Made by a program: the position numbers and the translations under genes. A DNA stretch of 64,000 nt from Escherichia coli (GTDB lineage Bacteria; Pseudomonadota; Gammaproteobacteria; Enterobacterales; Enterobacteriaceae). The notes below the pieces were generated by a model. It saw only the letters and a list, made by a program, of their open reading frames with translations. It did not search any database and was not told where the DNA came from. The DNA is taken from NCBI RefSeq assembly GCF_048403405.1, contig NZ_CP183129.1; one strand, given 5' to 3'. Below, piece after piece: positions 1,189-64,000 of the stretch (within the stretch, counting starts at the first letter, position 1; each line of letters begins with the position of its first letter).

Positions 1189-3778
<2,590 letters not shown>

Positions 3779-5974: not shown

Positions 5975-7702
5975 TTAGCATAACGCTTTCTGTTGTAACC
6001 ATAAATGTGCATATAAGCCATTTTTTGCAAGTAACTCAGCATGTTTTCCTTGTTCTGCTATTTTTCCATTTTCCATTACGATAATGTTATCGGCATTTTT
6101 AATGCTATTTAATCGATGGGCAATCATAATGATTGTCTTATCTTTTGATAACAATGATAAAGCTTGTTGAATTAATACTTCTGATGAACAATCGATACTC
6201 GATGTTGCTTCGTCAATCAGTAAAATTGGTGCATTTTTTAATAAAGTTCTAGCAAGAGAAAGACGTTGACGTTCTCCACCTGAGAGTAACATACCACCGT
6301 AACCAATAGGAGTATCATAATTTTGTGGTTTTTGTATAATAAACTCATGTGCATTAGCTAATTTAGCTGCAGTTATTATTTCATCATCGTGAGCATCTGT
6401 TTTTCCCATTAAAATATTATCTTTAATTGTTCCTGAAAATAAAACGACATCTTGATAAACAGAAGATACATATGAACAGAGTTTATCGGAATTTATTTGG
6501 TTAATATTAATATCATCTAGCAATATTTCACCTTGGTTAACATCCCATAGACGAGAAATAAGCTGTAGTAAAGTGCTTTTCCCTGAGCCACTAGGGCCAA
6601 CAATAGCAGTAAAGCTTTTTTCAGGAAAACAGCAAGATATATTATCTAATGTTAATTGACTATTATAAGGATAAATAAAGCTTACATTGTTAAAATAGAT
6701 ATCTGTTCTTATTGGTAATTGAGTATATTTAGGCTCAGAAAGTGGAACCACTTTCATTACTTCTTCTATGCGTTGTAATGATTTTTGTGCATAATTTAAC
6801 AACATACTGGATAATCCTAAATCAAAGAATTGTCGATAAATGGGGAGTGCTAATACAAGGAAAAAAACGAATTGAGAAGGAGAAAGTGAGCCACTAATTA
6901 AACGGCTTGTTCCTATTATCATTAATAAAATAAAACCTGATTCAAGAATAAAACCATAAAGTGCAATCCAAGGGGCAGGCTTGGAATCTAGAACTATTTG
7001 GGTTTTATTTTGTGTTTCTAAGGCTGCTTTTAGTTTTTTCCATGCAGGACCAAGTCGCCCAAAACTACGAATAACCATAATTCCTTGGATATAATCGAGT
7101 AATTCGGATTGTACATTGGCATTAGCATCAGCTGCCTGTTGTGCAGCTTTTAACATTATTTTATGGCTTATGGATAATGCGAACAGAGCGATTGGAATAG
7201 AAAATAATATAATTAAAGTGAGTTGCCAATCTACCCATACTAAGAATAGTGAGAGAAAAACAGGCATCGCTAAAGTACTGATAAACATTCCTAAGAAATG
7301 TGACCAGATATTTTCAATGATCTCTAAATCAGCAGTAAGCCGTGATGCAAGATCACCACTGCGTTGAGAAGAAAACCAGCCAATCGGGATTTTTCGTAAA
7401 TGATCGGCTATTCTTAGACGGGCTTGTCCCATCATTTTATAAGCACCAATAAAAATCATTGGCATACTATAAGTACCAATGACAATACGCAGAACAATAG
7501 ATAAGAGTATTGATAAAAAGTAATAAAATAACTGAGCTAGTGTGATTTTATTGGCAAAAAGATCAATTAATAAAAAATAGAGTAGAATATACGGAATAGT
7601 AGCAAAAAGACCTTCAACTACGGCAAGGCATAGACCCACCATTAAATCTTTATCTTTTTTATTAGAAAGCAAATAACCTGATTTAATTAATTCTTTAATC
7701 AT
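5975..7702 (-). CDS. nrpB: ABC exporter, fused permease/ATPase (YbtQ/Irp7-like)
   Basis: N-terminal multi-TM domain. NBD has Walker A GPSGSGKST, signature LSGGERQRL and Walker B LLIDEATS. There is an 8-nt overlap with the upstream ABC gene. Confidence 0.85.
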   Translation of the reverse strand: MIKELIKSGYLLSNKKDKDLMVGLCLAVVEGLFATIPYILLYFLLIDLFANKITLAQLFYYFLSILLSIVLRIVIGTYSMPMIFIGAYKMMGQARLRIADHLRKIPIGWFSSQRSGDLASRLTADLEIIENIWSHFLGMFISTLAMPVFLSLFLVWVDWQLTLIILFSIPIALFALSISHKIMLKAAQQAADANANVQSELLDYIQGIMVIRSFGRLGPAWKKLKAALETQNKTQIVLDSKPAPWIALYGFILESGFILLMIIGTSRLISGSLSPSQFVFFLVLALPIYRQFFDLGLSSMLLNYAQKSLQRIEEVMKVVPLSEPKYTQLPIRTDIYFNNVSFIYPYNSQLTLDNISCCFPEKSFTAIVGPSGSGKSTLLQLISRLWDVNQGEILLDDININQINSDKLCSYVSSVYQDVVLFSGTIKDNILMGKTDAHDDEIITAAKLANAHEFIIQKPQNYDTPIGYGGMLLSGGERQRLSLARTLLKNAPILLIDEATSSIDCSSEVLIQQALSLLSKDKTIIMIAHRLNSIKNADNIIVMENGKIAEQGKHAELLAKNGLYAHLWLQQKALC

Positions 7703-23500: not shown

Positions 23501-26500
23501 TCTGCTGATTTTTTTTCTGACAAGAGGTTGTCGAAATCAATATTTTGTTCAGTAAGATAATCATATAAAAATCCAGCTATGATTGCCGTTTCTTGGGATT
23601 GTTGTTGTACATTTATTGGGGTTGAGCGCAGATAGTAGAGGGGAGAAAAGGTGCTATTTGAACTGATAATATCCTGGTAATTACCCGAATTTAGTATCAC
23701 AAAAGAGTGTAATGCTTTTTCTTTATTACCATTACCAAGGCATAGTGTAATCGCATTTTGCACACCCTGAAGCTTATTGAATGCAGCATCAATTTCCCCT
23801 GGTTCTATACGGTATCCGCCAATCTTAACTTGGCGGTCACGTCTTCCTAAAAATTCAAGTATACCGCCAGGGAGATATCTTCCCATATCACCTGTTTTAT
23901 ACCAATTTTCACCATTTTGTTTTACAAACTGTTGTGCTGTTTTTTCGGGATCGTTTAGGTAGCCTAACGCAACGCCTGCACCACCAATCCAAAGTTCTCC
24001 TGATACCCAATCAGGGCAATCTTCTCCTCTAGCATTAACAATACGATAACGTTGGTTGGATAAAGGATATCCATAAGGTATCGAGCTCCAGGATGGGTCT
24101 AATGTTGTGACATTAAAATAGTTAGACCAAATAGCGGCTTCTGTGGCACCTCCCATGGCGACTATTTGTCCATCAGGGCAGAAATTATAGTAACGTGTCG
24201 GGAGATCAAGCCCAATCCAATCTCCAGAGAGATAGATTAATAGCAGCGATTGTGGAATGGATGACCCTATTCCTTCTGCATAGGTTAGTAACATATCAAA
24301 CAGTGCAGGTACGCTGTTCCAAAGTGTTATTTTATGTTGGTTAATAAGTCGTAACCATGCATCAGGATTACGGCGCTCATCTTCTTTAACTAATACAAGA
24401 GTCCCTCCGGCATTTAAAACACCGAAAATATCATAAACAGACAGATCAAAATGTAGTGCTGATATGGCAAGTACCCGATCTTTGTCTGAAATGTTATATC
24501 GCCGATTGAGATCAAGGCAGGTATTCATTGCGCTGGCATGGGATACAACAACACCTTTAGGCTCTCCAGTAGAACCTGAAGTATAAATAACATAAGCTGC
24601 TTGATGAGGAGATATATCTATATTGTGTAGTGGTTTATTCTCGGAGGGTTGAACTTTTTGCCAAACAATCCTGTTACAAAATGTAGCATAGATTGAATAG
24701 GATGGATCGCTATCAGATACGATGAGTAATGAAAGCTGAGCATTTTTAGCAATGCGGTTTATACGTTCTTCTGGTTGTAGTACATCAATCGGAACATAAG
24801 TTCCCCCCATTAATAAAATAGCCAGAACGCTAATGATTTGCCCTACTCCTTTTGGCATACATACACCAATTCTGTCTTCTGGTTTATAACCTTGTTGTAT
24901 TATTTGATCACTGAGTATTGTTGCTTTAGATAATAATTTTTTGTAGCTCCATTCCTGAGAGTCGATATCAATGACAGCAATTTTTGATGAATTTGAATAA
25001 TTATGGAAAATAGACTTATGCAGTGTATGTGGTAATAGTGAATTATCTTTTTTGATAACTGATATTCTATTTTTTAATTGTTTTTTAGGAATTAAATCAG
25101 GTTGGGTTTCAATCCAGGCATTAGGATCGTTGGCAAGTTGGCGTATACGAGAAATATAAACATCAAATATTGTTGTTATAACATCATTCCGGAACAAGTC
25201 ATTGTTATAATCCCACTGTAAAACAATATTTCCACTTTTGTTAATTGCCATGTGATCAAGCCAAACTTGTGGGGTTTGTGATATTCCCCATCCTATAGAA
25301 CCTAATACAGATTCTATATTTTTATCAATAAGTGGTTGATTAATATGGCTAGTAAAGACAACAGGACACCCATAAGGATGGGTGCCATTTTTACGAAGGT
25401 CTCTAATGATATCAATACCAGAATAATCAGAATGTTGCCAAGCTTCAATAAATGTATTTTGATTGTCTTTAGATAATGAAATTAATGGTCGATTGTCTGT
25501 TTTCATTTCTAAAAGAATGACATTAGTAAAATCAGCTATAATATTATTAACTGCAGGGGCTAATGGCTTTCTATCAAATAATGTAAAGTTGAGTAATAAG
25601 CTATTTTGGCCAGTCCATCTTGCAAGTACAGATGAGAAACAGGTTGCTAATGCAATGGAAGGTGTAATATTATTTTCTTTAGCCAAATTACTAAAGTTTT
25701 TCCATTCTTTTGAGCTAAATGTCCAGCTAAGGCGTTTAATTTTTATTTTATTTATTTTTTCTGGATCCATATATAATGGCAGAAGAGGAGAGTCTGGTAG
25801 GTTTGGGATTTTATTTTTCCAATATTGATATGCTGATTCTTTGTTTTCATACTGTTTTTTATCTTGTAAATAATGGTAAAAGTCATAGTGCTCATCTAAC
25901 TGAGGCAGTATTTCTCCGCTCAATAATAAACAAAGTTCAGTAAAGAGTAATGAATAACTTGTACCATCTGCAATCAACATATCAATATTAGTACATAAAC
26001 GATATCTGTTGTTAGGTAGCGATATCATGTGAAAATCAATTAACTGACCGCTTTCAACATTTAGTACCTGATGGCTTAATTTTTCCCGTAATTGTAAAAG
26101 TTTTTTCTCATACTCATCTTTTGGTAATTTACTAAAATCATGATATGTAACATATTTTCTATTTGGGTTAGGAGACCAAAATTGTGTACCCTGTTGGTGA
26201 AATACTATATTCAACATGGGATGACGTTTTGATAATAATACTAATGCTTTCTCTAGACTTTCCGGAGTAAATTTAGGGGTGCCATCAAATTCTTGATAAA
26301 TTTGGCAAGCAACACCACCAAGAGTTTGTTTATTCAAACGGCCGACAAAATAGGCATGTTGTATAGGTGTAAGTGAAAACTCACCAGCATTTTTTATTGT
26401 TTTATGTGTATATATATTATCTTTTCTTTCTTTTTTATTTATATCTGATTTTTTTAATATTTTATACCATCCTTTTATTGTTGGATTTAAATACAAATCT

Positions 26501-42059: not shown

Positions 42060-43552
42060 AAGTGAAATCCAATACGCTGGTCAAAATTCTGGTGCCGTCC
42101 GCACTGGCGTTGGCGGTGCTGATTGGTATCAAAAGCTGCCAGCCCGACACGCCGGTCACCGGCAGCGGACAGGACAACCTGTCTCAGTCAATCAATGACC
42201 TTGACCCAGGGGAGCTGAAGTCACTCGGGATTGAGGGGGATACCCCGGCCGATACACTGAGGACGCTGATTGGCACTATGAAAACGGTACGTGACCGTCA
42301 GGCGGAATTGATCGCCCAGAATGAGAAATTGCTGGAAGAGAATGCGCAGCTGCGTAACCGGCAGCAGAATGTGTCGGGGCAGATCCAGTCTGCGGTGGCT
42401 TCCGTCCGTCAGGAAGCGGAGAGTCAGCAGCGTGCCCTGCAACAGGAGCAGCAGACACTGATGCGGCGTCTGGATAGCCTGGGGGAAACGCTGACAGCAT
42501 CAGGTGGTCAGCCGGCTCAGGGCAGCGGACAAGGCGATATTCCGCTGGGACTGGGGCTGGATACCGGGGGCAGCGGACTGACGGTGAAAGACGGGTTGCT
42601 GTGGGCTGAGCCGCAGGATGCACAACCGGCTGAACCGGGGCGGATGGTGAACGGACAACCGGCTAAACCGGCGTTTCCGACCTCTTTTCTGGAGGATAAC
42701 GCCATTACCCGTCAGAAAGCGGAACTGGACCGGGTGGCCAAAAATCAGCGCACGCTCTCCGGTACAGTGGACGGTGAGGCCCATACCGAACCGGCGTACA
42801 CGATACCGGAGAATGCCACCCTGGTGGGCAGCCAGGCGATGACGGCGTTGCTGGGGCGGGTGCCCATTGACGGTAAAGTGACCGATCCGTATCCGTTCAA
42901 GGTGGTGGTGGGAAAAGACAACCTCACGGCGAACGGCATTGAGTTACCGGATGTGGAAGGGGCGGTGATCAGCGGCTCGGCCACCGGTGACTGGACATTG
43001 TCCTGTGTGCGCGGGGATATCACCTCGATCACCTTTGTTTTTACGGACGGCACGATCCGCACGGTGCCGAAGCCGGCTGACCGGACGGACGGCGGCAGTC
43101 AGGCCAACAGCGGACAGAATGCCCGTAATAACGGCGGGTCGCTCGGCTGGATTTCAGATGAGAGCGGGATCCCGTGTATCAGCGGTGAACGTAAAACCAA
43201 TGCCGGCACCTATCTGCCGACCCTGTTTGCCCTGACGGCAGCGGCCTCGGCCGGGGATGCGATGTCGCAGAGTCAGTATACCGCGCAGAACAACGGGTAC
43301 GGTATCACCTCCTCGCTCTCTGGGGATGCGGGGAAAGCGGCGCTGGGCAGTGCCATCGGCGGCGGGTTTAAGGATGTGGCGGACTGGGTGAAATCCCGCT
43401 ACGGGCAGACCTTTGATGCGGTGTATGTGCCGCCGGGGCAGAAAGTCGCGGTGCATATCAGCCGTCAGATCCCGGTGGATTATGAATCGCAGGGACGCCG
43501 GGTGAATTACGGTTTTTCACTGACAGAGGGTGAGGAAGGAGGTCTGGAGTGA
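42056..43552 (+). CDS. ICE protein, PFL_4705 family-like (TIGR03752; VirB10/TraB-like role suspected)
   Basis: ATGA overlap, N-terminal TM, coiled coil (QNEKLLEENAQLRNRQQ), Gly/Gln-rich linker, C-terminal beta domain. Confidence 0.55.
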   Translation: MKVKSNTLVKILVPSALALAVLIGIKSCQPDTPVTGSGQDNLSQSINDLDPGELKSLGIEGDTPADTLRTLIGTMKTVRDRQAELIAQNEKLLEENAQLRNRQQNVSGQIQSAVASVRQEAESQQRALQQEQQTLMRRLDSLGETLTASGGQPAQGSGQGDIPLGLGLDTGGSGLTVKDGLLWAEPQDAQPAEPGRMVNGQPAKPAFPTSFLEDNAITRQKAELDRVAKNQRTLSGTVDGEAHTEPAYTIPENATLVGSQAMTALLGRVPIDGKVTDPYPFKVVVGKDNLTANGIELPDVEGAVISGSATGDWTLSCVRGDITSITFVFTDGTIRTVPKPADRTDGGSQANSGQNARNNGGSLGWISDESGIPCISGERKTNAGTYLPTLFALTAAASAGDAMSQSQYTAQNNGYGITSSLSGDAGKAALGSAIGGGFKDVADWVKSRYGQTFDAVYVPPGQKVAVHISRQIPVDYESQGRRVNYGFSLTEGEEGGLE

Positions 43553-44034
43553 CGTATTTTGCGAAGCCGGGGGTGCTGGCTGTGACGCCGGTGACGTTTC
43601 CGCTGGTGTTTGTGTTCAGTGCCGGACAGGCCGGTTGTACTGGAAGTCATTTTTGCCTGACGGTGGCCGGTCATCAGGTGTTTGATGAGGAGCAACAGCA
43701 GCTGATTGCCGGCATGTCACCGGCGACGATACAGCTGGCGTGGCAGAGTACCGCCGGTGAGACGCCCGGGGCGGTTCTGTCTGTGGGCCGTCACCGGGTG
43801 GGGCTGAGTGACAACGACATTACCGTTTACCGGTTTGCCCCGCGGGATGAGGCGTGGCCGCAGGACAGTGACTGGGATCGCCTGCTGTACACCGTTTTTA
43901 AAGGGGAGGCGCCGGATAAAGCCGGCTGGCAATGTGTGCCTTTTTCACTATCTGAACTGAGCTGTCACGGTGAGTTTGCCCGGCTGACCTGCCGGGGGGC
44001 GATCCTGAAGGGCGCGGGAGGCGTCATATCATGA
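43549..44034 (+). CDS. Hypothetical protein of the transfer operon (GTG start)
   Basis: GTGA overlap with the upstream stop and ATGA overlap with the downstream start. No family recognised. Confidence 0.4.
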   Translation: MTYFAKPGVLAVTPVTFPLVFVFSAGQAGCTGSHFCLTVAGHQVFDEEQQQLIAGMSPATIQLAWQSTAGETPGAVLSVGRHRVGLSDNDITVYRFAPRDEAWPQDSDWDRLLYTVFKGEAPDKAGWQCVPFSLSELSCHGEFARLTCRGAILKGAGGVIS

Positions 44035-55243: not shown

Positions 55244-55782
55244 ATGAATTTTATTTTTTGGTTTGTGGTCTTAATAGGGGCGGGATATTTGTGGAGGAGG
55301 AGGGGTTGGTTCAGTAAAATAAGGAAGCAATACTCAAGGAGAAAAACAACATTAAATGGTAACAAAGGATGTTTATATAATAAAAAAAATGACAATGATG
55401 CTTTGGAAGGTAATGGGGATTGTAATAATTTTTATTCTGAGAATAAAGAAAGTTTCTTTTGGTTAATGATTGAGAGAGGTATTAAATTTTACAGAAAAGA
55501 ATATTTGACTACGATTACTGAAAAAAATATCATGATAAGTTAGTGAGCTGGTTTGGTGAGAAATGTTATATACATTGTCAGGTTAGTTTAGGGAGTTTAT
55601 TTATATTCCCAAAACAAAAAAATTTTACTGATGAAGAACAAAAACGTTTTTTTTCTGTTTGTAATAGAATGTCCTTGGATTTTATTTTAACATTTAAAAC
55701 TAATATGCCCTTCTTACGTGTTTCTGTTGACTCTATGAAAAATAAACCGCCTGTTTGGGATGTTTATGATAAATCCAAATAA
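55244..55782 (+). pseudogene. DUF2726-like (NERD/nuclease-fold-related) protein, frameshifted
   Basis: ATG 55244 follows AGGAG, then an N-terminal TM. The reading frame breaks at TAG 55541-55543. The next frame continues with CYIHCQVSLGSLF...NRMSLDFILTFKTNMPFLRVSVD, which resembles the DUF2726 core as I remember it. Confidence 0.4.
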
Positions 55783-55868
55783 AAACATATCTGATTGTTG
55801 AGTTTTCGTGATTAAAGATGGCATTGATTATTAATACGATGAAGAACCAACAAGGGGATATTTAATAA

Positions 55869-55907
55869 AGAGAAAAAGGAGGATGTAAAATATTCTCCTT
55901 TTTCTTT
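55869..55907 (+). terminator. Hairpin terminator candidate
   Basis: AGAGAAAAAGGAG / CTCCTTTTTCTTT stem (one G-T pair) with a 13-nt loop, followed by TTTATC. Confidence 0.45.
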
Positions 55908-55915
55908 ATCGGGTA

Positions 55916-55944
55916 TTGACGAAAAAAGAAAGTTTGATTAAATT
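55916..55944 (+). promoter_or_regulatory. Sigma70-like promoter ahead of pseudoknot array 1
   Basis: TTGACG (55916-55921), 17 nt, TAAATT (55939-55944). The array starts about 14 nt downstream. Confidence 0.5.
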
Positions 55945-55957
55945 TACCACGTTACAC

Positions 55958-56176
55958 CGTTGCTTAATGCAACATTGCCAATGCTTCGGTTGTCTGAGAG
56001 AAGCGCCTACGGGTGACAACAATGCCAATCCGGCAATCTGAGAGGAACGCCTACGGGTGATTGCCACTGCCAATCCTCGGGTCATCTGAGACGAGGGCCT
56101 ACGGGCGATGACAGAACTCCGTTCGTCCTTGAAATCGACGGAGGGTGATAACAGAATAGCGTTATCATCAGGATTA
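55958..56176 (+). ncRNA. Tandem pseudoknot array 1 (three units plus two hairpins), STAXI-like
   Basis: Units start at 55977, 56024 and 56069, each GCCAAT-S1-S2-CTGAGA-S1'-GCCTACGGG-S2'. Helix pairs are GCTTC/GAAGC and GTTGTC/GACAAC; CC/GG and GGCAATC/GATTGCC; CCTCG/CGAGG and GTCATC/GATGAC. Hairpins lie at 56117-56143 and 56146-56167. Confidence 0.65.
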
Positions 56177-56389
56177 ACTGCACTTCAGTGACCATGTCAC
56201 AGCTATCCGGTCACTCGGATATCCACAAAAAAGCAGAGTATGCGATAACGTGTATCTGCCTCTTCTGATGTGTTCTGACGAATACGTCCTGCTTTCTGCA
56301 ACCTTTGTATGCCCGGTATGACGCGTTTCCATTGCGCAGCTTTGGAAAGCGGCATCTTCGGAGCAATACATTGAGCAGCAGAATGATGG

Positions 56390-56436
56390 GCGTGCGTCAC
56401 TTTCGTCAAGTGAAACGAAGACAAAGTGACGCACGC
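56390..56436. other. Long hairpin (14-bp perfect inverted repeat) in an untranslated stretch
   Basis: GCGTGCGTCACTTT (56390-56403) pairs with AAAGTGACGCACGC (56423-56436), with additional inner pairs TTCGT/ACGAA. Confidence 0.6.
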
Positions 56437-56824
56437 AAGTGCATACGCTCAGAACGCTTCAATACTGGTCTTACAGCAAAACTGACAATCTGACAGACAT
56501 GTAATGCATTGCTCAGAACGGCTGAAAGTCTTTCAACGCTCAACGTTTATATGATGATAAAAACGTATAACATTATGAAAAAAGGAGAAAAAACGACACG
56601 ATACCAAGGCGACGTCAGGAAACTGACGGACGGAGGTGCCCTGATAACGGGGGCCGGTCTGATGACCGCAAACAGTTCAGAGAACTGATTTGATACCTCT
56701 CAACAACTCAACCTTTTATCGCCCCGGTGCTCAGGTATCTGTCAGGTCGCAGGATGCGCAATATAAAACCGTCGCGCCGGGAAAAGGTAACCAGTTGAGA
56801 GCGAAAGAGGCGGAGAATCAGAGA

Positions 56825-57733
56825 ATGTCCAGAAGAGCAAAAGCCCTGTCCCGTGAAATGCATATCCTTGCACGTCAGGCCGGAGGGAGCTTTAAAACCA
56901 TTGCAGACCGGGTCAAAATTGCAGAACGGGTTGCGGCAGAGCTGGCCGGGTTGAATATTCAGATACGATCTGTTGAGCAACTGAAATCCCGCCATATTGA
57001 AATGTATATCCATGCCCGCAGAGAACAGAATATCAGTTTACGCAGCTGTCAAAACGAAATGTCGGCTATCCGGGCGATATTTCGTGTTGCCGGACGTCAT
57101 AAACTGGCTGACCCTAAACATGAGCGCCTCAGTAATGAGGCGCTGGGGCTTTCAGGTGCCAGCAGGGCTGGCACCCGTACCGCGATATCGGACGAGCGCT
57201 TTCACGAAGCGCTCGCTCGGATTGAGCCTTATGATCAGGGGGTGGCATTAACTATGCAGTTATCCCGTAGTCTGGGATTGAGAAATGAAGAAGCCGTGCA
57301 GTCAGTAAAATCATTACGGACCTGGCAACAGGCGCTTAAAAACGGTAAAGATCGCGTTCATGTGGTTTTTGGGACAAAAGGAGGCAGACCCCGTGAAGCA
57401 TTAGTGCCGGATAAAGCCCGTGTATTAACATTAATTAATAAAGCCATTGAATATGCGGATAAACATAACGGTTATTTAATTAATCGTCCGTCATTACATT
57501 CTGCCAAAGATCGTTATATTAATGTGATGCGACGGATAGGCGGATTTATTCACGAAGAATCAAATCATGGTTTACGGTATGCCTATGCTCAGGATGTTGA
57601 AAAATATTATCTCAGTCAGGGATTCAGTCAAAAGGAAGCCTATGCATTAACCTCCATGGATTTAGGGCATGGTGACGGTCGTGGCGATTATATTAAACGG
57701 GTTTATAGTCAGAAAGGAGATATTGAGGAATAA
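56825..57733 (+). CDS. Tyrosine-recombinase-like protein (phage integrase-fold, Integrase_1-type)
   Basis: Candidate catalytic residues: LGLRNEEA (Arg), HGLRYAYA (His-x-x-Arg), GDYIKRVY (Tyr). ATG 56825 follows GGAG. The TTG-initiated track ORF from 56690 is less likely. Confidence 0.65.
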   Translation: MSRRAKALSREMHILARQAGGSFKTIADRVKIAERVAAELAGLNIQIRSVEQLKSRHIEMYIHARREQNISLRSCQNEMSAIRAIFRVAGRHKLADPKHERLSNEALGLSGASRAGTRTAISDERFHEALARIEPYDQGVALTMQLSRSLGLRNEEAVQSVKSLRTWQQALKNGKDRVHVVFGTKGGRPREALVPDKARVLTLINKAIEYADKHNGYLINRPSLHSAKDRYINVMRRIGGFIHEESNHGLRYAYAQDVEKYYLSQGFSQKEAYALTSMDLGHGDGRGDYIKRVYSQKGDIEE

Positions 57734-57740
57734 GATAAAA

Positions 57741-58352
57741 ATGAAAGTCTGTTTAATTATTTTGTTTATTAATTTTGCTTTTTGTTTTCCGTTAATGGCG
57801 AAGACGTTATTTTTAGGTGATTCATTAACGGCTGTTTATGAAATGTCAGCAAAATATGTTTTGGATGAAAAAATAAAAACAGAATATGTTTCCGGTTCGG
57901 GGTTAATAAATAAAAGTAAAAAAGATTGGATCGCTTTCGTGAATAATTTCGATTTGCGGGAGTTTGATAATGTGATTATTAGTCTCGGAACAAATGATTT
58001 TGTTCAATATGGTTCGGATGAATGGCTGAAATATTACAGTCTGGTATTTCAATTCATTGCTGAAATTCAAAGTGAAAATCCGTTAGCGACAATTGTCTGG
58101 ATATCTCCACCACATTTAAAAAATCCGGAACATGAACGTTATTTAATACATACCCGGCATATAATTAAACACAGTGCGATGTTATTAAATATTCATTATC
58201 TGGATATTAATCAGCCTCATATATTAGGAACGCAATGGCAATCTGTTATTCATAATGAAACTGTACGAACTGATGATGGAATACATATTACCCGTAAAGG
58301 GGGAGTACGGGTGATCAGAGAAGTGGTAAAAATCCTGAATGGGCAGGATTGA
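57741..58352 (+). CDS. Secreted SGNH/GDSL-family hydrolase
   Basis: Signal peptide. Block I FLGDSLT, block III LGTND, block V DDGIHIT. It is markedly more AT-rich than the flanking genes. Confidence 0.75.
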   Translation: MKVCLIILFINFAFCFPLMAKTLFLGDSLTAVYEMSAKYVLDEKIKTEYVSGSGLINKSKKDWIAFVNNFDLREFDNVIISLGTNDFVQYGSDEWLKYYSLVFQFIAEIQSENPLATIVWISPPHLKNPEHERYLIHTRHIIKHSAMLLNIHYLDINQPHILGTQWQSVIHNETVRTDDGIHITRKGGVRVIREVVKILNGQD

Positions 58353-58377
58353 CAAAGATAAAAAAACGGCTAAAAAT
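58349..58377 (+). promoter_or_regulatory. Sigma70-like promoter ahead of pseudoknot array 2
   Basis: TTGACA (58349-58354, overlapping the hydrolase stop), 16-17 nt, TAAAAA/AAAAAT (58371-58377). Confidence 0.5.
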
Positions 58378-58391
58378 GAATCTGCTTATCT

Positions 58392-58612
58392 CGTTGCGTA
58401 ATGCAACTTGCCAATGCTTCGGTTGTCTGAGAGAAGCGCCTACGGGTGACAACAATGCCAATGTTCCGGCAATCTGAGAGGAACGCCTACGGGTGATTGC
58501 CACTGCCAATCCTCGGGTCATCTGAGACGGGAGCCTACGGGCGATGACAGAACTCCGTTCGTCCTTGAAATCGACGGAGGGTGATAACAGAATAGCGTTA
58601 TCATCAGGATTA
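58392..58612 (+). ncRNA. Tandem pseudoknot array 2, STAXI-like (direct repeat of 55958-56176)
   Basis: Near-identical to array 1. Unit 2 has the fuller S1 helix GTTCC/GGAAC (3-nt indel relative to array 1). The array is followed by TTTTT. Confidence 0.65.
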
Positions 58613-58640
58613 TTTTTACGCAACGCTTCATATAACCTGC

Positions 58641-58700
58641 CCGCTGACGGGGAAATCACCCGTCATCAGGGAATTTCTCCGTTTTTTCAGGAGAAATTCA
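58641..58700 (+). promoter_or_regulatory. Leader: conserved ACGGGG...CCCGTCA hairpin plus SD-sequestering hairpin
   Basis: First hairpin: TGACGGG / CCCGTCA (58645-58665). Second: a perfect 10-bp stem GAATTTCTCC (58671-58680) / GGAGAAATTC (58690-58699) with a T-rich loop. The GGAG SD lies inside the stem, and the ATG is at 58701. Confidence 0.6.
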
Positions 58701-59063
58701 ATGAAGGTATCTACATTTCCGGAATCGTCTTTTTTTGACGATCTGCACTCTCTCACGCAACTGCATCACCTCTCAGGTGAGCTCGACATGGTTCTTGCTT
58801 TTGTCCGTCTGGATATTGGCGAGCACCCGGACGAAGATAATTTTCCGCCAAACTTCTGGATAATCAGTGCCGTTGCAGAGCAACTGGGCGCGTTATCTGT
58901 GGAGGCTGATTTTACCCGTCCACATCTTGAGAAAATGGTCCGCGCTGTCTGGAAAGCGGCTGAGCAAACGCCTTATGCGTCTGACTTTCGCCGTATCTAC
59001 AACGATGCGATCAAAAATGCACAGTTTGAAGATCCGGTTGAAGCGCTGATGTTTGGTGCTTAA
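58701..59063 (+). CDS. Hypothetical acidic protein (120 aa)
   Basis: ATG start with the structured leader described above. No family recognised. Confidence 0.55.
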   Translation: MKVSTFPESSFFDDLHSLTQLHHLSGELDMVLAFVRLDIGEHPDEDNFPPNFWIISAVAEQLGALSVEADFTRPHLEKMVRAVWKAAEQTPYASDFRRIYNDAIKNAQFEDPVEALMFGA

Positions 59064-59144
59064 CGGCGGACATTCACTGATTTTATGACCCATACGGGAA
59101 AACATCCCGTGAGGGCTGTATTCCCTTATCTGAGGATAGCCCTT

Positions 59145-59553
59145 ATGACTCTTTTTACATTGAATTATGGTGTTGCCCACGTAATGTCTGGTATTGCCAG
59201 TTATTTATTTCCGCATTCCCGTGTTTCTCAGCAACTGAAGGCCGTTGCTAATGATGCCCGGATGCTGAAAATCACCGCAGAAGAACTGGAGGTGATACGT
59301 TTGGACGAAAAACGGATGTATCAGAGCGGAGATTACAGAGAACTGCCGTTTATTGAGCTTGATTTGTATACAACGGCATTTCGTTTTGGCGCCCTGATTT
59401 ACTATGGACTCGCAAACCGGTGCCCCCGCATTTTTGCTTCACCGGCTGACAGTCATCGCTGAGCGGCTCGATCCGGAAATCTGGAATGAAGCCTGGCGCT
59501 GGGGTTACCGCTGCTGCCTGCAACACGAAAATGAAAAGCATGTAACCGACTGA
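59145..59553 (+). pseudogene. Paralog of the 59629-60051 gene, with a +1 frame break in a C5/T5 homopolymer zone
   Basis: ATG 59145 follows GAGGA. Frame 0 stops at 59460-59462. The +1 frame continues APAFLLHRLTVIAERLDPEIWNEAW..., which aligns to PWPACLLRRLPDIGQRIDAVIWQKGC of the downstream gene. Upstream matches include NYGV/IYGI, DARML/EARTL and LYTTAFRFGALI/LYDAGFAYGRLL. Confidence 0.55.
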
Positions 59554-59628
59554 TTTAACGGACTCACAGGTGTCAGTCAGCTACCCTGAAATGGGGCTGC
59601 TTCCATTTACTGATCAGGTTTGATAACC

Positions 59629-60051
59629 ATGATTTATGGCATTACCCGCGGACTGTTCTTTGTGGCCGATCACGTCTGTCGCTATTCCCGGAGTTGGGAA
59701 TGGCTGATGTGGCTGGTTGAGGAAGCCCGGACACTGCGAAATGTTGAGGCTGATTTGAAACTGGCTGAAAGGTATGCCGGTGAGCAAAACCGCCCTCATT
59801 CCATTTCGCTGATGAAGTGTACGCTTTATGATGCCGGATTTGCTTACGGCAGATTATTACTGTGGCGTGCGGATGGTCTGATGAGACCCTGGCCGGCATG
59901 TCTGCTTCGCCGTTTACCGGATATCGGTCAGCGGATTGATGCAGTGATCTGGCAGAAAGGCTGTGAAGCCGGCTTGGATGAGACCGTCAGTGAATGGATG
60001 GCAATGGAGATGGCTGATGAATACCTTGTCGGTATCGAACTGAGCGACTGA
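59629..60051 (+). CDS. Hypothetical protein (140 aa), intact paralog
   Basis: ATG 59629 (the track ORF starts at TTG 59620). No family recognised. Confidence 0.55.
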   Translation: MIYGITRGLFFVADHVCRYSRSWEWLMWLVEEARTLRNVEADLKLAERYAGEQNRPHSISLMKCTLYDAGFAYGRLLLWRADGLMRPWPACLLRRLPDIGQRIDAVIWQKGCEAGLDETVSEWMAMEMADEYLVGIELSD

Positions 60052-60084
60052 TTTGCCGGCATTCATTCTTTTTTTACTTACCTA

Positions 60085-60147
60085 CCCGACGGGGAAACTC
60101 CCCGTCAGGTGGACGTTTCTCCGTCTTTTTTTACCGGAGAAACACAC
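60085..60147 (+). promoter_or_regulatory. Leader: conserved ACGGGG...CCCCGTCAGG hairpin plus SD-sequestering hairpin
   Basis: First hairpin: GACGGGG / CCCCGTC (60088-60106), loop AAACT. Second: a 9-bp stem GTTTCTCCG (60115-60123) / CGGAGAAAC (60135-60143) with a T-rich loop. GGAGA is inside the stem, and the ATG is at 60148. Confidence 0.6.
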
Positions 60148-60504
60148 ATGTCTGTTTTACTGCCAGAAAACAAACCGTTTTCATTTCTGAGTCTGATCAT
60201 GCAACGGCTGTACCGTTTTTATGACCGTATACCGTTTGTTTCGTCAGGGATACCCGGTGAATTACCGTGGATAAGTAACCGAACCGGCCGGCGCGCTTAC
60301 CGTGCGACGGTGGTGAAAGTGAATCCCCGGCAGTTCAGGATCCGCATTACTGTACGTCTGGGCGCGCATTCGAAAGAATACCGCTTTCATTCGTTGATAA
60401 CCTCGCTGGACAGCAGGACATTTTGTTCCATAAAAGCGGCCTCCCGTGCCGGATTTGCACTGACATACCAGCTGGCACAGGTGCGTTATGCCTGGTGTCG
60501 CTGA
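60148..60504 (+). CDS. Hypothetical basic protein (118 aa)
   Basis: ATG 60148 is preferred over the GTG 60109 track start because of the SD position. No family recognised. Confidence 0.5.
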   Translation: MSVLLPENKPFSFLSLIMQRLYRFYDRIPFVSSGIPGELPWISNRTGRRAYRATVVKVNPRQFRIRITVRLGAHSKEYRFHSLITSLDSRTFCSIKAASRAGFALTYQLAQVRYAWCR

Positions 60505-60550
60505 TTTGTTGTACTGATAGCACCATTGACTTTTTGTTATGACCCCGCCC

Positions 60551-60593
60551 GGCGGATTGATTTCCGTCAGGAGATGAATCCGCCATTTTTTTA
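60551..60593 (+). terminator. Hairpin plus T7 tract directly upstream of the next gene's SD
   Basis: GGCGGATT / AATCCGCC outer stem with inner pairs around CCGTCAGG, followed by ATTTTTTT. SD GAGGA lies at 60602-60606 and the ATG at 60615. Confidence 0.55.
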
Positions 60594-60614
60594 ATCAGAA
60601 TGAGGATTTATCAC

Positions 60615-61127
60615 ATGGGATATACACATTATTTTACACAAAAACAAAGCGTTGACCCCCTGATGTGGCAGAACTTCCGTGAACATCTGGACAAGCTCTA
60701 TCACCACTATCTGGCCAATCCCATATCCGCAGAGCAGATTTGCGGCGGATACCCAGATAAACCTATTGTGTTGTGTGATGGCCTGGAGGAAAAACGGCTG
60801 AATGATGGCTCATTATTCACCGACGACGGTGAGGCGCTTTGTTTTAACGGTAATGCGGCTGATGACATGAATCATGAGACGTTTATTGTTCAGCGCGAAA
60901 TCCCCGTAGAGGACTACTGGGATTTCTGCAAGACAGCATACAAACCCTATGACGTGTTTGTAGTCGCGGCATTACTGTTGTTGTACAACCTGTGCCCGGG
61001 ATATTTTTCGGTCTCTTCTGACGGGGATATCCGGGACTGGCAGCCGGTGCTGGACTATGTCAGTCAGGTATTTCCTTATCTTATCCTGACGTTACCGGAA
61101 GGGATAGGTTTACCGGAGGCAGGATAA
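60615..61127 (+). CDS. Hypothetical protein (about 170 aa; MGYTHYF...)
   Basis: ATG 60615 sits 8 nt after GAGGA. No family recognised. Confidence 0.55.
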   Translation: MGYTHYFTQKQSVDPLMWQNFREHLDKLYHHYLANPISAEQICGGYPDKPIVLCDGLEEKRLNDGSLFTDDGEALCFNGNAADDMNHETFIVQREIPVEDYWDFCKTAYKPYDVFVVAALLLLYNLCPGYFSVSSDGDIRDWQPVLDYVSQVFPYLILTLPEGIGLPEAG

Positions 61128-61774
61128 TGGCCAGAGCCTGTACGATACGGGAACTGATAGCGGATTTATCCCGCTGCAATCCGGAGGCATTCGTCTTGTG
61201 TGAGATGTGGTTCCCCGATGATGTTACCTATGTTGATGAAACGGCTTGTCCGGCAGAGACACGGGCAACATTAACGCATGTTGCACATCATTTTGATGCG
61301 GAGCTGGGGATCAACTGGGACACGCTGGCGTGTGCGTTATCGTGTGTCAGAGATGCTGAGCAGAAGGGACTCGATATTTACTTTTATGCCAGTGAAAAGC
61401 GTGGTACAGACAAAAGCCGGATACCCGCCTCACGTTACGCAGAAGCGGACAGCGACGGCGATATTGAAGTCGGGTATTTCCGTAAGGTTAATGCGCTGTT
61501 TAAGTGGGTGCATGACCATATCGGGGCTTTTGAGAACTGTGAAAAGGTGCTGGTGACAGAGGCCCATCTGCGGGCTTTACAGCAGGACTTGCAGGCACTG
61601 ACACCGGAAAACTGTCAGACACGGTTCCCGACCACTGAGGGCTTTTTCTTTGGTTCAACGGCTTATGATGAGGCGTACTGGGCTGATGTGGAAGGCGTCA
61701 GACGCTGGCTGTCAGAGATAACGGAGACGTTTGACTTTGACGCAGAGTCACTGTTTTTTGTGGCCTGGTGGTAA
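61127..61774 (+). CDS. Hypothetical protein (215 aa; C-terminal GFFFGSTAYDEAYWADVE...FFVAWW)
   Basis: TAATG overlap with the upstream gene. No family recognised. Confidence 0.55.
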   Translation: MARACTIRELIADLSRCNPEAFVLCEMWFPDDVTYVDETACPAETRATLTHVAHHFDAELGINWDTLACALSCVRDAEQKGLDIYFYASEKRGTDKSRIPASRYAEADSDGDIEVGYFRKVNALFKWVHDHIGAFENCEKVLVTEAHLRALQQDLQALTPENCQTRFPTTEGFFFGSTAYDEAYWADVEGVRRWLSEITETFDFDAESLFFVAWW

Positions 61775-61780
61775 TCAGGT

Positions 61781-61852
61781 AAGGTGTTTCCCCGGGAAGC
61801 ACTGAACACATTTTAATCAGTGTTTCCACTGGAAACGCCGGTTGAAAATTAA
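61781..61852 (+). repeat. Two tandem 36-bp iterons of the same family as 35253-35396
   Basis: Unit 1 contains GTGTTTCCCCGGGAAGCAC. Unit 2 contains the perfect palindrome GTTTCCACTGGAAAC at 61822-61836, followed by GCCGGTTGAAAATT. GTGTTTCC recurs at 61784 and 61820, 36 bp apart. Confidence 0.8.
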
Positions 61853-61874
61853 CCATATTGTTTTTTCACCTGAT

Positions 61875-61911
61875 GGTGTATCTCACCGTCAGGACGGGAT
61901 ACACCTTTTTT
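61875..61911 (+). terminator. Strong hairpin plus T6 between the iterons and the ardC ribosome-binding site
   Basis: GGTGTATC / GATACACC outer stem with inner CCGT/ACGG pairs (CCGTCAGG core), then TTTTTT. SD GAGGG lies at 61915-61919. Confidence 0.55.
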
Positions 61912-61926
61912 ATTGAGGGTATTCCG

Positions 61927-62901
61927 ATGAAAAAATCTGACCGTAAACGCCGTCCGGCAGCGGATAAGCCGGTTCGCGATATTTATCAGGAAGTGACTGA
62001 CCGTATTGTGGCCGCGCTGGAAAAAGGCACCCGTCCGTGGAAACGACCATGGCGGCCGTCGGAAGGGACAGGCACCGGTTTTCCGGTGAACGCCCTGACC
62101 GGTCATTCCTACCAGGGGATAAATGTGCTGCTGTTATGGTTGTCGGCGGCGGAGCAGGGCTTTGGTTACGATATCTGGCTGACTTACCGTCAGGCACAGC
62201 AACTGGGTGGCCATGTCCGTAAAGGCGAAATGGCGACGAATACTGTGATATTCAAACCGGTGAAGGTGCCGGCAAAAGACCGTCACGGTGAGCTGCTGCG
62301 GGATGAACACGGTGAGGTGGTGATGACGGAGGTGCCGATGATAAAGGCGAATCCGTTATTTAACATAGCCCAGTGTGATGACCTGCCGGCGCATTTTTAC
62401 GAAAACCGGCGACTACCCGGAGAGGAGACAGCAGGGATAACCCTGCCGGCCACGCACCGGGTGCTGGATATCCTGAATGCCAGCGGCGTGAAGGTGACCA
62501 GTGCGGCGCAGAACCGGGCGTATTACAGTCCGTCACAGGACCGGATTGTGATGCCGCTGTCGTCACAGTTTGACCGGAATGCCGATTACCAGGCCACCTT
62601 ACTGCATGAGTTGGTGCACAGTACCGGTCATCCGTCCAGGCTGGCCCGTGAAGGCATCACCTCATCGTCCCTGAAGTTTGGTGACCCGCTGTACAGTTTT
62701 GAGGAGCTGGTTGCGGAAATGGGCAGCGCTTTTCTTTGTGCGCAGTTAAGCGTCGAGGGAGAAGTGAACCATGAAAGCTATCTTGACAGCTGGCTGCGGG
62801 TACTGAAATCGGACAAAAAAGCGTTGTTCCGGGCCGCCGGGCAGGCCCGCCAGGCCTGTGAGTTTTTACTGAATGTGGCCGCATCCCGACAGGCCGCGTA
62901 G
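61927..62901 (+). CDS. ardC: ArdC antirestriction protein (ssDNA-binding N-domain plus zinc-metalloprotease domain)
   Basis: RPWKRPW, YQGINVLLLW, WLTYRQAQQLGGHVRKGE, FNIAQCDDL, HELVHSTGH (HExxH), FEELVAEMGSAFL. Confidence 0.85.
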   Translation: MKKSDRKRRPAADKPVRDIYQEVTDRIVAALEKGTRPWKRPWRPSEGTGTGFPVNALTGHSYQGINVLLLWLSAAEQGFGYDIWLTYRQAQQLGGHVRKGEMATNTVIFKPVKVPAKDRHGELLRDEHGEVVMTEVPMIKANPLFNIAQCDDLPAHFYENRRLPGEETAGITLPATHRVLDILNASGVKVTSAAQNRAYYSPSQDRIVMPLSSQFDRNADYQATLLHELVHSTGHPSRLAREGITSSSLKFGDPLYSFEELVAEMGSAFLCAQLSVEGEVNHESYLDSWLRVLKSDKKALFRAAGQARQACEFLLNVAASRQAA

Positions 62902-62910
62902 GAGACTGCG

Positions 62911-63210
62911 ATGAACAAAATGACCATTATCCGCTTTCAGTTACTGGTACATCAGTTACTGCAAGTGCATTACGGCATTACGCTGAGTGATACCGGATTG
63001 TCCGATGATGCTGAGGTGTCCCGGATGATTGAACTCGGGATATCGCCGGTATCGGTGGTCAACCGTCTGGTGGATAAGTACCACCTGGATAAACTGAATG
63101 CATCCTGTTATCTGCCGGCATCCCCGTATGTCAGTGACAGCGATGCCTTACTTGCACAGGCTCAGCTGAGCGGTGCCATTAACCCGGATGTCATGCCGGA
63201 TAATCCTTAA
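62911..63210 (+). CDS. Hypothetical protein (99 aa)
   Basis: ATG start 10 nt after the ardC stop. No family recognised. Confidence 0.5.
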   Translation: MNKMTIIRFQLLVHQLLQVHYGITLSDTGLSDDAEVSRMIELGISPVSVVNRLVDKYHLDKLNASCYLPASPYVSDSDALLAQAQLSGAINPDVMPDNP

Positions 63211-63230
63211 CGATTAACGACTGACATCTT

Positions 63231-63294
63231 TCCCGTGAGGGCTTGTTCCTCACGGGATAAGCCCTCTTTTTTATTCTGAAAAGAGGACATCATC
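63231..63294 (+). promoter_or_regulatory. Hairpin terminator plus SD-sequestering hairpin ahead of the DUF1281-like gene
   Basis: Perfect 10-bp stem TCCCGTGAGG / CCTCACGGGA (63231-63257). Then CCTCTTTT (63263-63270) / AAAAGAGG (63279-63286), enclosing the SD. The ATG is at 63295. Confidence 0.55.
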
Positions 63295-64000
63295 ATGCCA
63301 AACTGGTGCTCGAACCGACTTGACATCACCTTACACAACGCGGCGGATATGCCGGCTCTTAAACACTGGATATATGCGGATGATGGGATACCCGCCTGGC
63401 AGACGGCGATAGCACAAAGTCTGCATTTGTTGCTGGCCGGCTGCGCGGGGATACTGAAACCGGTCAGACCGCTGTCTTTTCCGCCGTTACCGGAACTGAC
63501 TTCATACGGTGCAACCGGGCCTGTTTCCCCGGGAAACACGGCTTTCACGCACTGGGTTGACCTGCTGATGACTGCACCGGATTTGACACCGTCATGTTGT
63601 CAGCAAATCCATCAGTGGTATCAGATGTGGTTATCTGAAGGCGGGGCGTACCATTCCTGGGACTCGCTGACGGCGACGCAGAAAGCGAGACTGTCCCCGT
63701 TGTTATCGGGAAGCAGTTTTGACTGGCTTAACCGGTTTACCGGAGAGGATGAGAGCCGGGTGGCGACAGCCTGGGAGGATATTCAGTACCTTCGCAGTAC
63801 CGGAGAAGCCATACCGATGGATATGCGGACTCTGTTACCGACCAGCCTTGCGGCTGAATTACACGGTTTTAACGGCTGTTTATGGAAAACACCGGAGGTC
63901 ATCTGGCGGCAGGCGCGCTGGCAGGCGTTTGCCCCCGGTAACAGTACATATCACCTTTATCAGTGCCGTTATGGTGTGAAATGGCCGAACGGCAGTGGTT
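63295..64000 (+). CDS. DUF1281-like protein (MPNWCSNRL... N-terminus), 3' end outside window
   Basis: Frame checked by hand and open from ATG 63295 to the window end; it is absent from the ORF track because no stop is reached. The MPNWC start is characteristic of the DUF1281/Api92-like family common in plasmid and ICE leading regions, from memory. Confidence 0.6.
   Translation, partial: MPNWCSNRLDITLHNAADMPALKHWIYADDGIPAWQTAIAQSLHLLLAGCAGILKPVRPLSFPPLPELTSYGATGPVSPGNTAFTHWVDLLMTAPDLTPSCCQQIHQWYQMWLSEGGAYHSWDSLTATQKARLSPLLSGSSFDWLNRFTGEDESRVATAWEDIQYLRSTGEAIPMDMRTLLPTSLAAELHGFNGCLWKTPEVIWRQARWQAFAPGNSTYHLYQCRYGVKWPNGSG

Follow-up and report, generated by a model that had tools for sequence, protein, structure and literature searches.

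Among the described systems that come closest to the RNA leaders reported here is the trp leader of Bacillus subtilis, in which TRAP, acting on trpE, works through an attenuator and through a hairpin that blocks the Shine-Dalgarno sequence (SD) in the read-through transcripts. The leaders in question lie between positions 58,641 and 63,294 of a 64,000-nucleotide stretch of Escherichia coli DNA (contig NZ_CP183129.1, assembly GCF_048403405.1; the whole stretch is called the window, and its features are all on the + strand as given), within a gene array of an integrative conjugative element (ICE). As in the trp leader, a terminator and alternative helices exclude each other, the transcripts that escape would hide their SD, and both levels of control would be combined in one element. 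The ICE leaders differ in that no effector (TRAP, tRNA, ligand or leader peptide) was found for them, in being repeated five to seven times within what looks like one operon, not placed once at its head, in a terminator fold that frees the SD and an escape fold that buries it, and in having a conjugative element as their host.

A second group of comparable systems is that of the operons under processive antitermination, such as lambda N/nut, the put RNA of HK022, the EAR element of B. subtilis and the conAn of pLS20-type plasmids. Common to these and to the ICE array are a long operon with several intrinsic terminators and a structured RNA, here the STAXI motif, right after the promoter. The SD lock of the ICE leaders has no counterpart there, antitermination by STAXI is hypothetical, and no similarity to put or EAR was found, the Rfam matches being only STAXI and EFASI.

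The remaining systems are known from mobile elements. Frpo is a long hairpin with the -35 and -10 boxes in its stem. Like Frpo, the ICE leaders are secondary structures beside anti-defence and establishment genes, presumably aimed at limiting expression to the entry phase; unlike Frpo, they are short, lack promoter boxes, have the polarity of a sense RNA, and stand as a rule before every gene and not once (PMC9849209, PMC11541004). Reg576 of plasmid p576 binds duplex-DNA operators at separate promoters before the establishment genes, ardC included, which are off when the plasmid is established (PMC6294495). The two systems have a recurring element before each establishment gene in common, whereas that of the ICE is a folded RNA that includes a terminator and the SD, and the scan of its array detected no internal promoter. 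Finally, the RNA motifs STAXI and EFASI (RF01728, RF02957) occur at the same loci and on the same strand, with STAXI at the head of every leader-bearing array, but the leaders are separate elements downstream of STAXI and match neither model. No description of these leaders was found in the literature searched, and the leader appears to be a double lock, not described before, on genes by which mobile DNA establishes itself in a new host.

A Four-Segment Leader with Two Exclusive Folds

Five of the seven long intergenic gaps of the array contain a leader of some 60 bases, composed of four segments. In the terminator fold, segment 1 pairs with segment 3 in a strong hairpin that abuts a run of six or seven Ts. 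In the alternative fold, segment 1 pairs with segment 2, giving the ACGGGG...CCCCGTCAGG hairpin (hairpin 1), which holds the conserved word CCGTSAGG, and segment 3 and some of the U-tract bases pair with the SD, which is segment 4, so that the T-run lies in the loop. RNA folding makes the terminator and the combination of hairpin 1 with the SD-sequestering hairpin mutually exclusive. Our confidence in this structure is high. Our confidence in the function proposed for it is moderate: that the leaders form one family of cis-acting bistable mRNA leaders, through which serial attenuation and translational occlusion would keep the array silent, has in our estimate a little better than an even chance of being right.

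The clearest case is leader 4 (60081-60147, before the gene at 60148), which matches a covariance model, R1, at 66.7 bits; the seed of this model consists of 13 leaders of one type and holds the two-hairpin fold only. Its first segment, GACGGGGAAAC (60088-98), pairs either with UCCCCGUC, forming hairpin 1 (60088-94/60100-06, -13.4 kcal), or with GUUUCUCCGUC (60115-25), directly followed by U7 (60126-32), forming a predicted intrinsic terminator of -23.8 kcal, and in the same way GUUUCUCCG pairs either with segment 1 or with CGGAGAAAC, which is the SD (hairpin 60115-23/60135-43, -11.0 kcal).

The same architecture is made from different sequences in leaders 1, 5, 6 and 8. Leader 1 (58644-58700, before gene 58701; R1 match of 63.7 bits) has hairpin 1 at 58645-51/58659-65 (-11.7 kcal), the terminator at 58647-56/58673-82 followed by Ts to 58687 (-16.2 kcal), and the SD hairpin at 58671-80/58690-99 (-12.3 kcal). 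Leader 5 (60551-60614, before gene 60615), which was defined by RNA folding, forms either a terminator at 60551-65/60570-84 with T7 at 60586-92 (-22.9 kcal) or hairpin 1 at 60551-56/60563-68 (-9.6 kcal) with an SD hairpin at 60573-81/60604-12 (-12.5 kcal), and its orthologs at five related loci (L003, L004, L006, L007 and L008; loci are given by number only where they must be told apart) show the same fold behaviour. Leader 6 (61869-61926, before ardC at 61927), supported by folding and by covariation among its orthologs, has hairpin 1 at 61869-78/61884-93 (-16.2 kcal), the terminator at 61875-82/61898-905 with T6 at 61906-11 (-15.9 kcal), and the SD hairpin at 61895-907/61915-26 (-14.2 kcal). 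Leader 8 (63232-63294, before the DUF1281 gene at 63295), supported by folding and by a covarying terminator helix, has hairpin 1 at 63232-40/63248-56 (-17.1 kcal), the terminator at 63237-44/63259-66 with T6 at 63267-72 (-21.8 kcal), and the SD hairpin at 63263-71/63279-86 (-9.4 kcal).

These five leaders have the anatomy of intrinsic terminators, i.e., hairpins on the sense strand, with energies between -15.9 and -23.8 kcal, directly ahead of T5-T7. In leaders 4 and 5 the two-hairpin and terminator states are nearly equal in energy (-24.4 vs -23.8 and -22.1 vs -22.9 kcal, respectively); a leader RNA ending at the T-run, as it would when the polymerase stands on the U-tract, typically folds as the terminator, and the full leader folds into two hairpins, which bury the SD and place the U-tract in a loop. 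Leader 2 (59091-59147, before gene 59145) lies outside the seed of R1 and matches it at 27.8 bits (E=8e-4); it has a hairpin at 59094-98/59106-10 and a 12-bp stem at 59108-19/59136-47 that covers the SD and the start codon (-19.0 kcal), and since it has no T-run, it would act as a translational lock only. An RNA thermometer of the fourU or ROSE kind was considered for the SD hairpins and rejected, given their energies (-9 to -14 kcal, and -19 kcal in leader 2) and the lack of a thermometer match in Rfam.

A first-pass annotation of the window, made from the letters alone, had drawn attention to three copies of a hairpin, CTGACGGGGAAATCACCCGTCATCAGG at 58644-58670, ATACGGGAAAACATCCCGTGAGG at 59092-59114 and CCGACGGGGAAACTCCCCGTCAGG at 60086-60109, and to related cores in hairpins at 60551-60585, 61875-61905 and 63231-63257. 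All of these sequences and coordinates are correct, and the start codons assigned to the three copies (58701, 59145 and 60148) agree with the RefSeq annotation of identical E. coli chromosomes. The hairpin and its core also exceed chance: ACGGG-N3-9-CCCGT is present four times where 0.27 copies would be expected, three of these being the hairpin copies above, and CCGTSAGG 15 times where 2.3 would be, seven of them within 59107-63255. A repeat search placed 58642, 59089, 60084 and 61868 in one family, 58646-58687 aligning with 60088-60129 (42 nt) at 76% identity. RNAfold reproduced the SD-occluding stems of leaders 1, 4 and 8 (58671-58699, 60115-43 and 63263-86) at the energies given above, as well as the hairpins with T-runs at 60551-60592 and 61875-61911. 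These stems and terminator-like hairpins had been described as two separate cases; both are present, as one design. The statement that such structures precede nearly every small gene narrows to seven of nine gene starts, the gap before gene 59629 having no leader, and genes 61127 and 62911 abutting the gene before them. Five further CCGTSAGG words, on both strands, were observed within 1.4 kb at 42295-43663, mostly inside a conjugation gene of the TIGR03752 family.

The flanks of the leaders have a feature of their own. Stop codons in at least two frames (TGAnnTAA-type) occur in the 32 nt 5' of hairpin 1 in 51 of 86 distinct leaders, often together with a loose TTAACC; in the window, such flanks lie at 58612-58643, 60049-60085, 60502-60550 and 63208-63231. 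It looks as if ribosomes of any frame were kept off the leader.

Recurrence and Specificity

The array recurs at 92-93% identity, with different gene content, in other E. coli, and is also present in Morganella and in two metagenome contigs. At about 70% coding identity it is found in conjugative MPF_G/MOBH plasmids or ICEs of Erwinia, Duffyella, Pantoea, Salmonella (a record named pSGI4), Klebsiella and Citrobacter; the plasmid relatives came from a distant-mode search, a Megablast search against plasmids having given no match. The layout of STAXI, small genes, ArdC, (DUF1281), ..., TraI is constant in the relatives, whose leaders have the same architecture, many of them being unalignable with those of the window, and the design is in this sense conserved among related ICEs. 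Leaders occur in two further ICE contexts, one with STAXI, a small gene, an inverse autotransporter, UvrD and TraI, and the other with topB, STAXI, the STY4534 replication protein and ssb. A profile search of genome contigs with an ArdC alignment gave as close loci only Proteus mirabilis (ATCC 29906) and Providencia stuartii, in both of which ArdC is 100% identical, and its remaining 47 loci, which carry distant ArdC genes, served as negative controls.

In 920 kb searched on both strands, R1 gave 77 matches at E<=1 and none in the 47 control loci. Sixty-six are on the + strand, and the 11 on the minus strand are weak (<=23 bits), nearly all of them overlapping leaders; elsewhere in the window there is one weak match. 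The strong matches, which include leader types outside the seed, are on the + strand and end at start codons. A strict pattern scan gave three matches in the 4.7-kb array vs seven in 1.13 Mb of control sequence, and a search of 55500-64000 against Rfam 15 at E<=5 returned, besides STAXI and EFASI, only three weak matches at the level of chance (55832-55916), none of these hits falling in a leader. Dispersed repeats of the REP, BIME or ERIC type were rejected as a source of the family, since R1 has no match in the control loci and the sequence of leader 4 is matched in 27 of 5426 E. coli genomes, confined to this ICE. Strong R1 matches were also seen where no gene is annotated downstream (L062 4543-4607, L061 3756-3818, L066 1760-1818, L064 4827-4885 and L006 3825-3888), and these probably mark unannotated or decayed small genes.

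Covariation of Both Folds

A T-run is present in 72 of the 97 distinct leaders, and in 44 of these the terminator abutting it is the minimum free energy (MFE) structure of the RNA that ends there. The bases of the two folds overlap extensively in these 44 leaders: in 39 of them, segment 2 takes up four or more bases of the terminator 5' arm when the other fold forms; in 40, five or more bases of the 3' arm find new partners beyond the T-run; and in 20, bases of the U-tract pair downstream. In 43 of the 44, at least two bases of the 5' arm are unpaired in the loop of hairpin 1, a stretch that we interpret as a toehold for strand exchange. Segment 4 is more complementary to segment 3 than shuffled versions of segment 4 are (median z = -3.75; z <= -2 in 32 of 40). 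When 66 array leaders were compared with 45 other gene starts of the same records, the probability that the SD is paired was 0.77 vs 0.57 (p=2.5e-6) and the mean MFE -34.9 vs -18.3 kcal (p=5e-15), both tests counting orthologous leaders as independent.

Folding across homologs, which the first-pass annotation had suggested, shows that compensatory changes keep both folds. In the ArdC leaders, 86% of the cells are paired in the two-hairpin fold, vs 42-52% in slid controls, with eight pairs changed on both sides; the SD helix (helix 2) is 90.6% paired, with five such pairs, and the terminator helix 89%, vs 39-65% in slid controls, with three compensatory pairs. Segments 1, 3 and 4 change jointly in three groups of these leaders (GGGCGTAT/ATGCGCCC/GCATCCC, ../ATACGCCC/GTATCCC and GGCGTGCC/GGCACGCC/GTGCTCC). 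The terminator helix of the DUF1281 leaders is 98.6% paired (37-70% in slid controls), with three compensatory pairs and a score reached in none of 500 shuffles, and that of a third set of leaders is 98.8% paired (46-74% in slid controls), with one compensatory pair. Given that the sub-families differ by one column in the terminator register on the R1 alignment, segment 1 was paired with its own and with foreign partners, a test independent of the two-hairpin fold to which the alignment had been fitted; the duplex of segments 1 and 3 is 5.7 kcal better with the own partner, and in 37 of 54 leaders the own segment 3 beats at least 90% of the unrelated ones.

Two helices that compete for the same bases, the terminator and its alternative, with covariation of both folds, are the configuration of an attenuator, and an SD held in a stable helix by compensatory change is that of SD sequestration. 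The attenuation or translational-occlusion scheme offered in the first-pass annotation fits the anatomy and is backed by this covariation; its further element, genes silent until a trigger comes, is a presumption.

Hairpin 1 of the DUF1281 leader (CCCGTGAGG...CCTCACGGG, window 63232-63256) has one and the same sequence in each of the seven plasmid and ICE loci that were aligned (Erwinia, Duffyella, Pantoea, Salmonella and Citrobacter), the same arms being present in the window, L006 and L007 copies, while the adjoining terminator helix covaries. This invariance suggests sequence-specific recognition.

The same data bear on the simplest alternative, in which the structures are ordinary gene-end terminators or mRNA-stabilising hairpins between horizontally acquired genes, the SD pairing and the inner hairpin being by-products of GC-rich stems beside purine-rich SDs. 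This is unlikely, even if the hairpins with T-runs are classical in form, no trigger was found, and about half of all terminator-like hairpins find a downstream partner at -8 kcal or better in a loose energy-based genome scan for refoldable terminators (a scan that was set aside as not discriminating, and is not evidence). By-products would not explain SD pairing that is maintained by compensation, as when GGGATGC/GCATCCC of the ArdC leaders becomes GGGATAC/GTATCCC or GGGGCAC/GTGCTCC, or a complementarity of segments 4 and 3 far above that of shuffles of the same composition. The design also recurs among leaders without alignable sequence, the rest of the same ICE is without such leaders, and burial of the SD is normally selected against.

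STAXI and the Head of the Array

A STAXI motif (58392-58551, Rfam match of 123 bits) heads the array. A sigma-70-like candidate, TTGACA-17-AAAAAT (58349-58377, 10/12 matches), lies 14 nt upstream of it and is the probable promoter of the whole array, judging from the conservation of its position: the -35/-10 pair is kept at the same place before STAXI in most of 12 related loci despite sequence divergence, with a spacing of 13-15 nt (window 58349-58551 and 55916-56115; L003, L006, L060-L068, L071 and L073). The first leader begins 93 nt 3' of the window STAXI, and in 14 of 14 arrays an R1 leader begins 49-93 nt after STAXI, so STAXI looks like the 5' end of the array transcript. In a sigma-70 consensus scan, the only promoter-like sites on the + strand of the array lay before STAXI or just behind it, and this, with the position kept in relatives, makes the array look like one operon.

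Should each gene instead be a unit of its own, with an activator-dependent promoter in its gap, the leader would be a 5' UTR switch for a protein acting in trans on the CCTSACGG/CCGTSAGG hairpin, e.g., an RNA-binding antiterminator or a translational activator encoded by the element. The invariant hairpin 1 of the DUF1281 leaders beside its variable helix, the 6-fold over-representation of CCGTSAGG, and an arm spacing whose variation fits the recognition of a hairpin rather than of a duplex would agree with such a protein. However, no promoter-like motif stands at a fixed distance 5' of hairpin 1, where only the multi-frame stops and the loose TTAACC were seen, no candidate RNA-binding protein emerged among the array proteins, which have no informative family match, and bases shared by two alternative helices are conserved anyway. 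We consider this arrangement improbable, slightly more so than that of plain terminators.

A second STAXI, with an EFASI, precedes an 'integrase domain' gene at 55958-57733. The EFASI hairpin GACGTCAGGAAACTGACGGAC (RF02957, window 56593-56744) has the words CGTCAGG/CTGACGG in common with the arms of leader hairpin 1, and the corresponding hairpin of Erwinia and Duffyella reads CATCAGG/CTGGTG, where one leader has CCATCAGGGG. This sharing is probably due to chance. A duplex test found no significant complementarity: EFASI or STAXI as an RNA acting in trans on the leaders was rejected on z-scores around 0 in four elements, the best being -2.1.

STAXI occurs in 727 of 5426 complete E. coli genomes. 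It was also observed (78-231), together with EFASI (758-880), on a mobilizable E. coli plasmid of 3.1 kb (NZ_CP059920.1, L070, 3140 bp), whose only named gene is 'protein rep', which hints at a role in cis in replication or transfer, as a single-strand origin, a priming site or an oriT mimic, in line with the Rfam text.

The Leader as Sense RNA

The T-run after the hairpin and the SD after the T-run occur on the sense strand only. Sense leaders fold more stably than their antisense counterparts (MFE -28.9 vs -27.1 kcal, p=7e-4), with 176 vs 116 G.U pairs and 18 vs 32 A.C mismatches, and these results favour a leader that acts as sense RNA.

They also bear on a second option of the first-pass annotation, in which the hairpins would act in the transferred single-stranded DNA (ssDNA), whether as promoters of the Frpo kind, as priming signals or to protect the T-strand. 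The array adjoins traI and encodes ArdC, which makes it plausibly part of a leading region; STAXI, found on the 3.1-kb plasmid as well, was proposed by its discoverers to act as ssDNA, as far as the Rfam text quoted in PMC12370729 goes. The leaders themselves do not support a Frpo-type reading, since a local inverted-repeat search gave arms of at most 15 nt, the sigma-70 consensus scan found no -35/-10 pair within any leader, and the polarity of T-run and SD, the G.U pairs and the fold stability all favour the mRNA-sense strand. We regard an action of the leaders as ssDNA as quite improbable; the ICEclc papers gave no oriT position usable for this element. Least credible of all is the notion of mobile cassette boundaries (attC-like or homologous repeats, perhaps used by the neighbouring 'integrase domain' protein), which has in its favour that gene content varies among relatives while the leaders stay, that one homology breakpoint between the window and L003 falls inside a leader hairpin and that a tyrosine-recombinase-like gene is always near, but it leaves SD pairing and T-run unexplained, the genes keep the order V A B/C D W E F Z Y ArdC, which points to gain and loss and not to shuffling, no attC cores (GTTRRRY) were seen by eye in the leaders, and the neighbouring recombinase is of the Integrase_1 / Phage_int_SAM_2 type.

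The Element and Its Gene Array

Window positions 58300-63400 are 100% identical to the chromosomal DNA of several E. coli strains, in which the region lies inside an ICE of the TIGR037xx / MPF_G type at tRNA-Phe; the element is ICEPm1-like by its gene content (taaP and an NRPS/PKS cluster). The array (58.3-64.3 kb) runs in one direction between the mating-pair genes and the traI-int end, in the order promoter-like site, STAXI, small genes, ArdC, CbtA-like gene and DUF1281. The genes served by the leaders (58701-64000; defined by open reading frames (ORFs), RefSeq annotation and protein family searches) are six small genes starting at 58701, 59145, 59629, 60148, 60615 and 61127, for which protein family searches gave no informative match, ardC (61927-62901), a CbtA-family gene (62911-63210), and the DUF1281 gene, which begins at 63295 and extends beyond the end of the window. 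A strong terminator of classical form lies just past the window end, after the DUF1281 gene (locus L001, ~26030-26065). The conjugation genes of the same ICE are tightly coupled and have no such leaders.

Several further observations were made along the array. Gene 59145 resembles a frameshifted paralog of gene 59629, with which it has the motif LY.AGF.YG in common, and its ORF continues at 59404-59553; the gap between the two is the sole long gap without a leader, and relatives L003-L005 have one gene there. An 18-nt palindrome, GTGTTTCC(C/A)C(G/T)GGAA(G/A)C(A/G)C, is present in three copies, two of them (61783-61802 and 61818-61839) in the long gap before the ardC leader, where they are kept in Proteus/Morganella-type relatives, and the third (63522-63539) inside the DUF1281 gene. 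The palindromes look like a putative operator for a dimeric DNA-binding protein, and, given their presence, ardC may have an extra regulated promoter. Finally, a CCCGC(G/A)TTG(C/T/A)TATCGT stretch upstream of traI is kept in three relatives (L001 ~26080-26140, just past the window end; L003 ~7200-7260; L008 ~3470-3510) and may be part of oriT, in which case the array would be transcribed toward oriT, as in the leading regions of plasmids.

A Proposed Double Lock along a Probable Single Operon

From the anatomy and the covariation of the leaders we infer that termination and SD occlusion do take place, in the following manner. A single operon of establishment genes, headed by STAXI (anti-restriction by ArdC, and genes of other, unassigned function), would be interrupted by five terminators and one translation-only lock, and a polymerase bound for ardC and the DUF1281 gene would have five strong terminators to get past. 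During transcription, hairpin 1 would form first, and segment 3 would then invade it through the toehold in its loop, giving rise to the terminator, at which some of the polymerases would stop, stepwise at each leader. In the transcripts that escape, the A-rich, SD-containing segment 4 would reclaim segment 3, hairpin 1 would form again and the SD would be locked. In the resting element, the array would thus be quiet in transcription and in translation, and expression would follow only when transcription becomes terminator-resistant or when the balance of the folds is shifted.

Several points weigh against this model. No sensing input was found: the ORF list of the window shows no plausible leader peptide (an ORF with a TTG start that runs across leader 4, 60053-60190, is taken to be spurious), Rfam returned no aptamer, and neither STAXI nor EFASI proved complementary to the leaders. 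All of the leader folds are thermodynamic predictions, and for window leaders 1 and 6, when cut at the T-run, the MFE structure is hairpin 1 and not the terminator. The T-run is absent from 25 of the 97 distinct leaders, leader 2 included, and a few leaders keep the complementarity of segments 1 and 3 without it (L060_4535 and L064_4432). Each set of orthologs has few members (7-9), which are related by descent, and the sigma-70 consensus scan does not exclude internal promoters that depend on an activator.

A last difficulty is that two folds that are both off would leave the route to gene expression puzzling. Because the SD is free in the terminator fold, translatable RNA would be made by a polymerase that runs through the terminators, and this could come about by processive antitermination or possibly on a single-stranded template. 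STAXI is the obvious candidate for the switch, because its promoter is conserved and it lies 49-93 nt before the first of the serial terminators. By analogy with put and EAR, it may be a cis-acting processive antiterminator RNA, or otherwise the switch of the array, a tentative proposal to which we give a low probability. If it were true, the array would work as an AND gate, its establishment genes being on only when transcription is antiterminated or when the template is single-stranded, just after transfer.

Implications for the Element Family

How establishment genes are silent in the resting element and yet expressed on entry is understood for few plasmids, by Frpo in F and by Reg576 in p576. 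The array suggests a third solution, based on RNA, in a widespread family of Enterobacterales ICEs and MPF_G/MOBH plasmids, which includes ICEPm1 and, judging from the record name pSGI4, the Salmonella island SGI-4. The competition of a terminator with an SD lock would be a compact natural RNA device, reusable in synthetic biology, and STAXI, an orphan motif since 2010, gains a concrete context at the head of what appears to be an operon full of switchable terminators.

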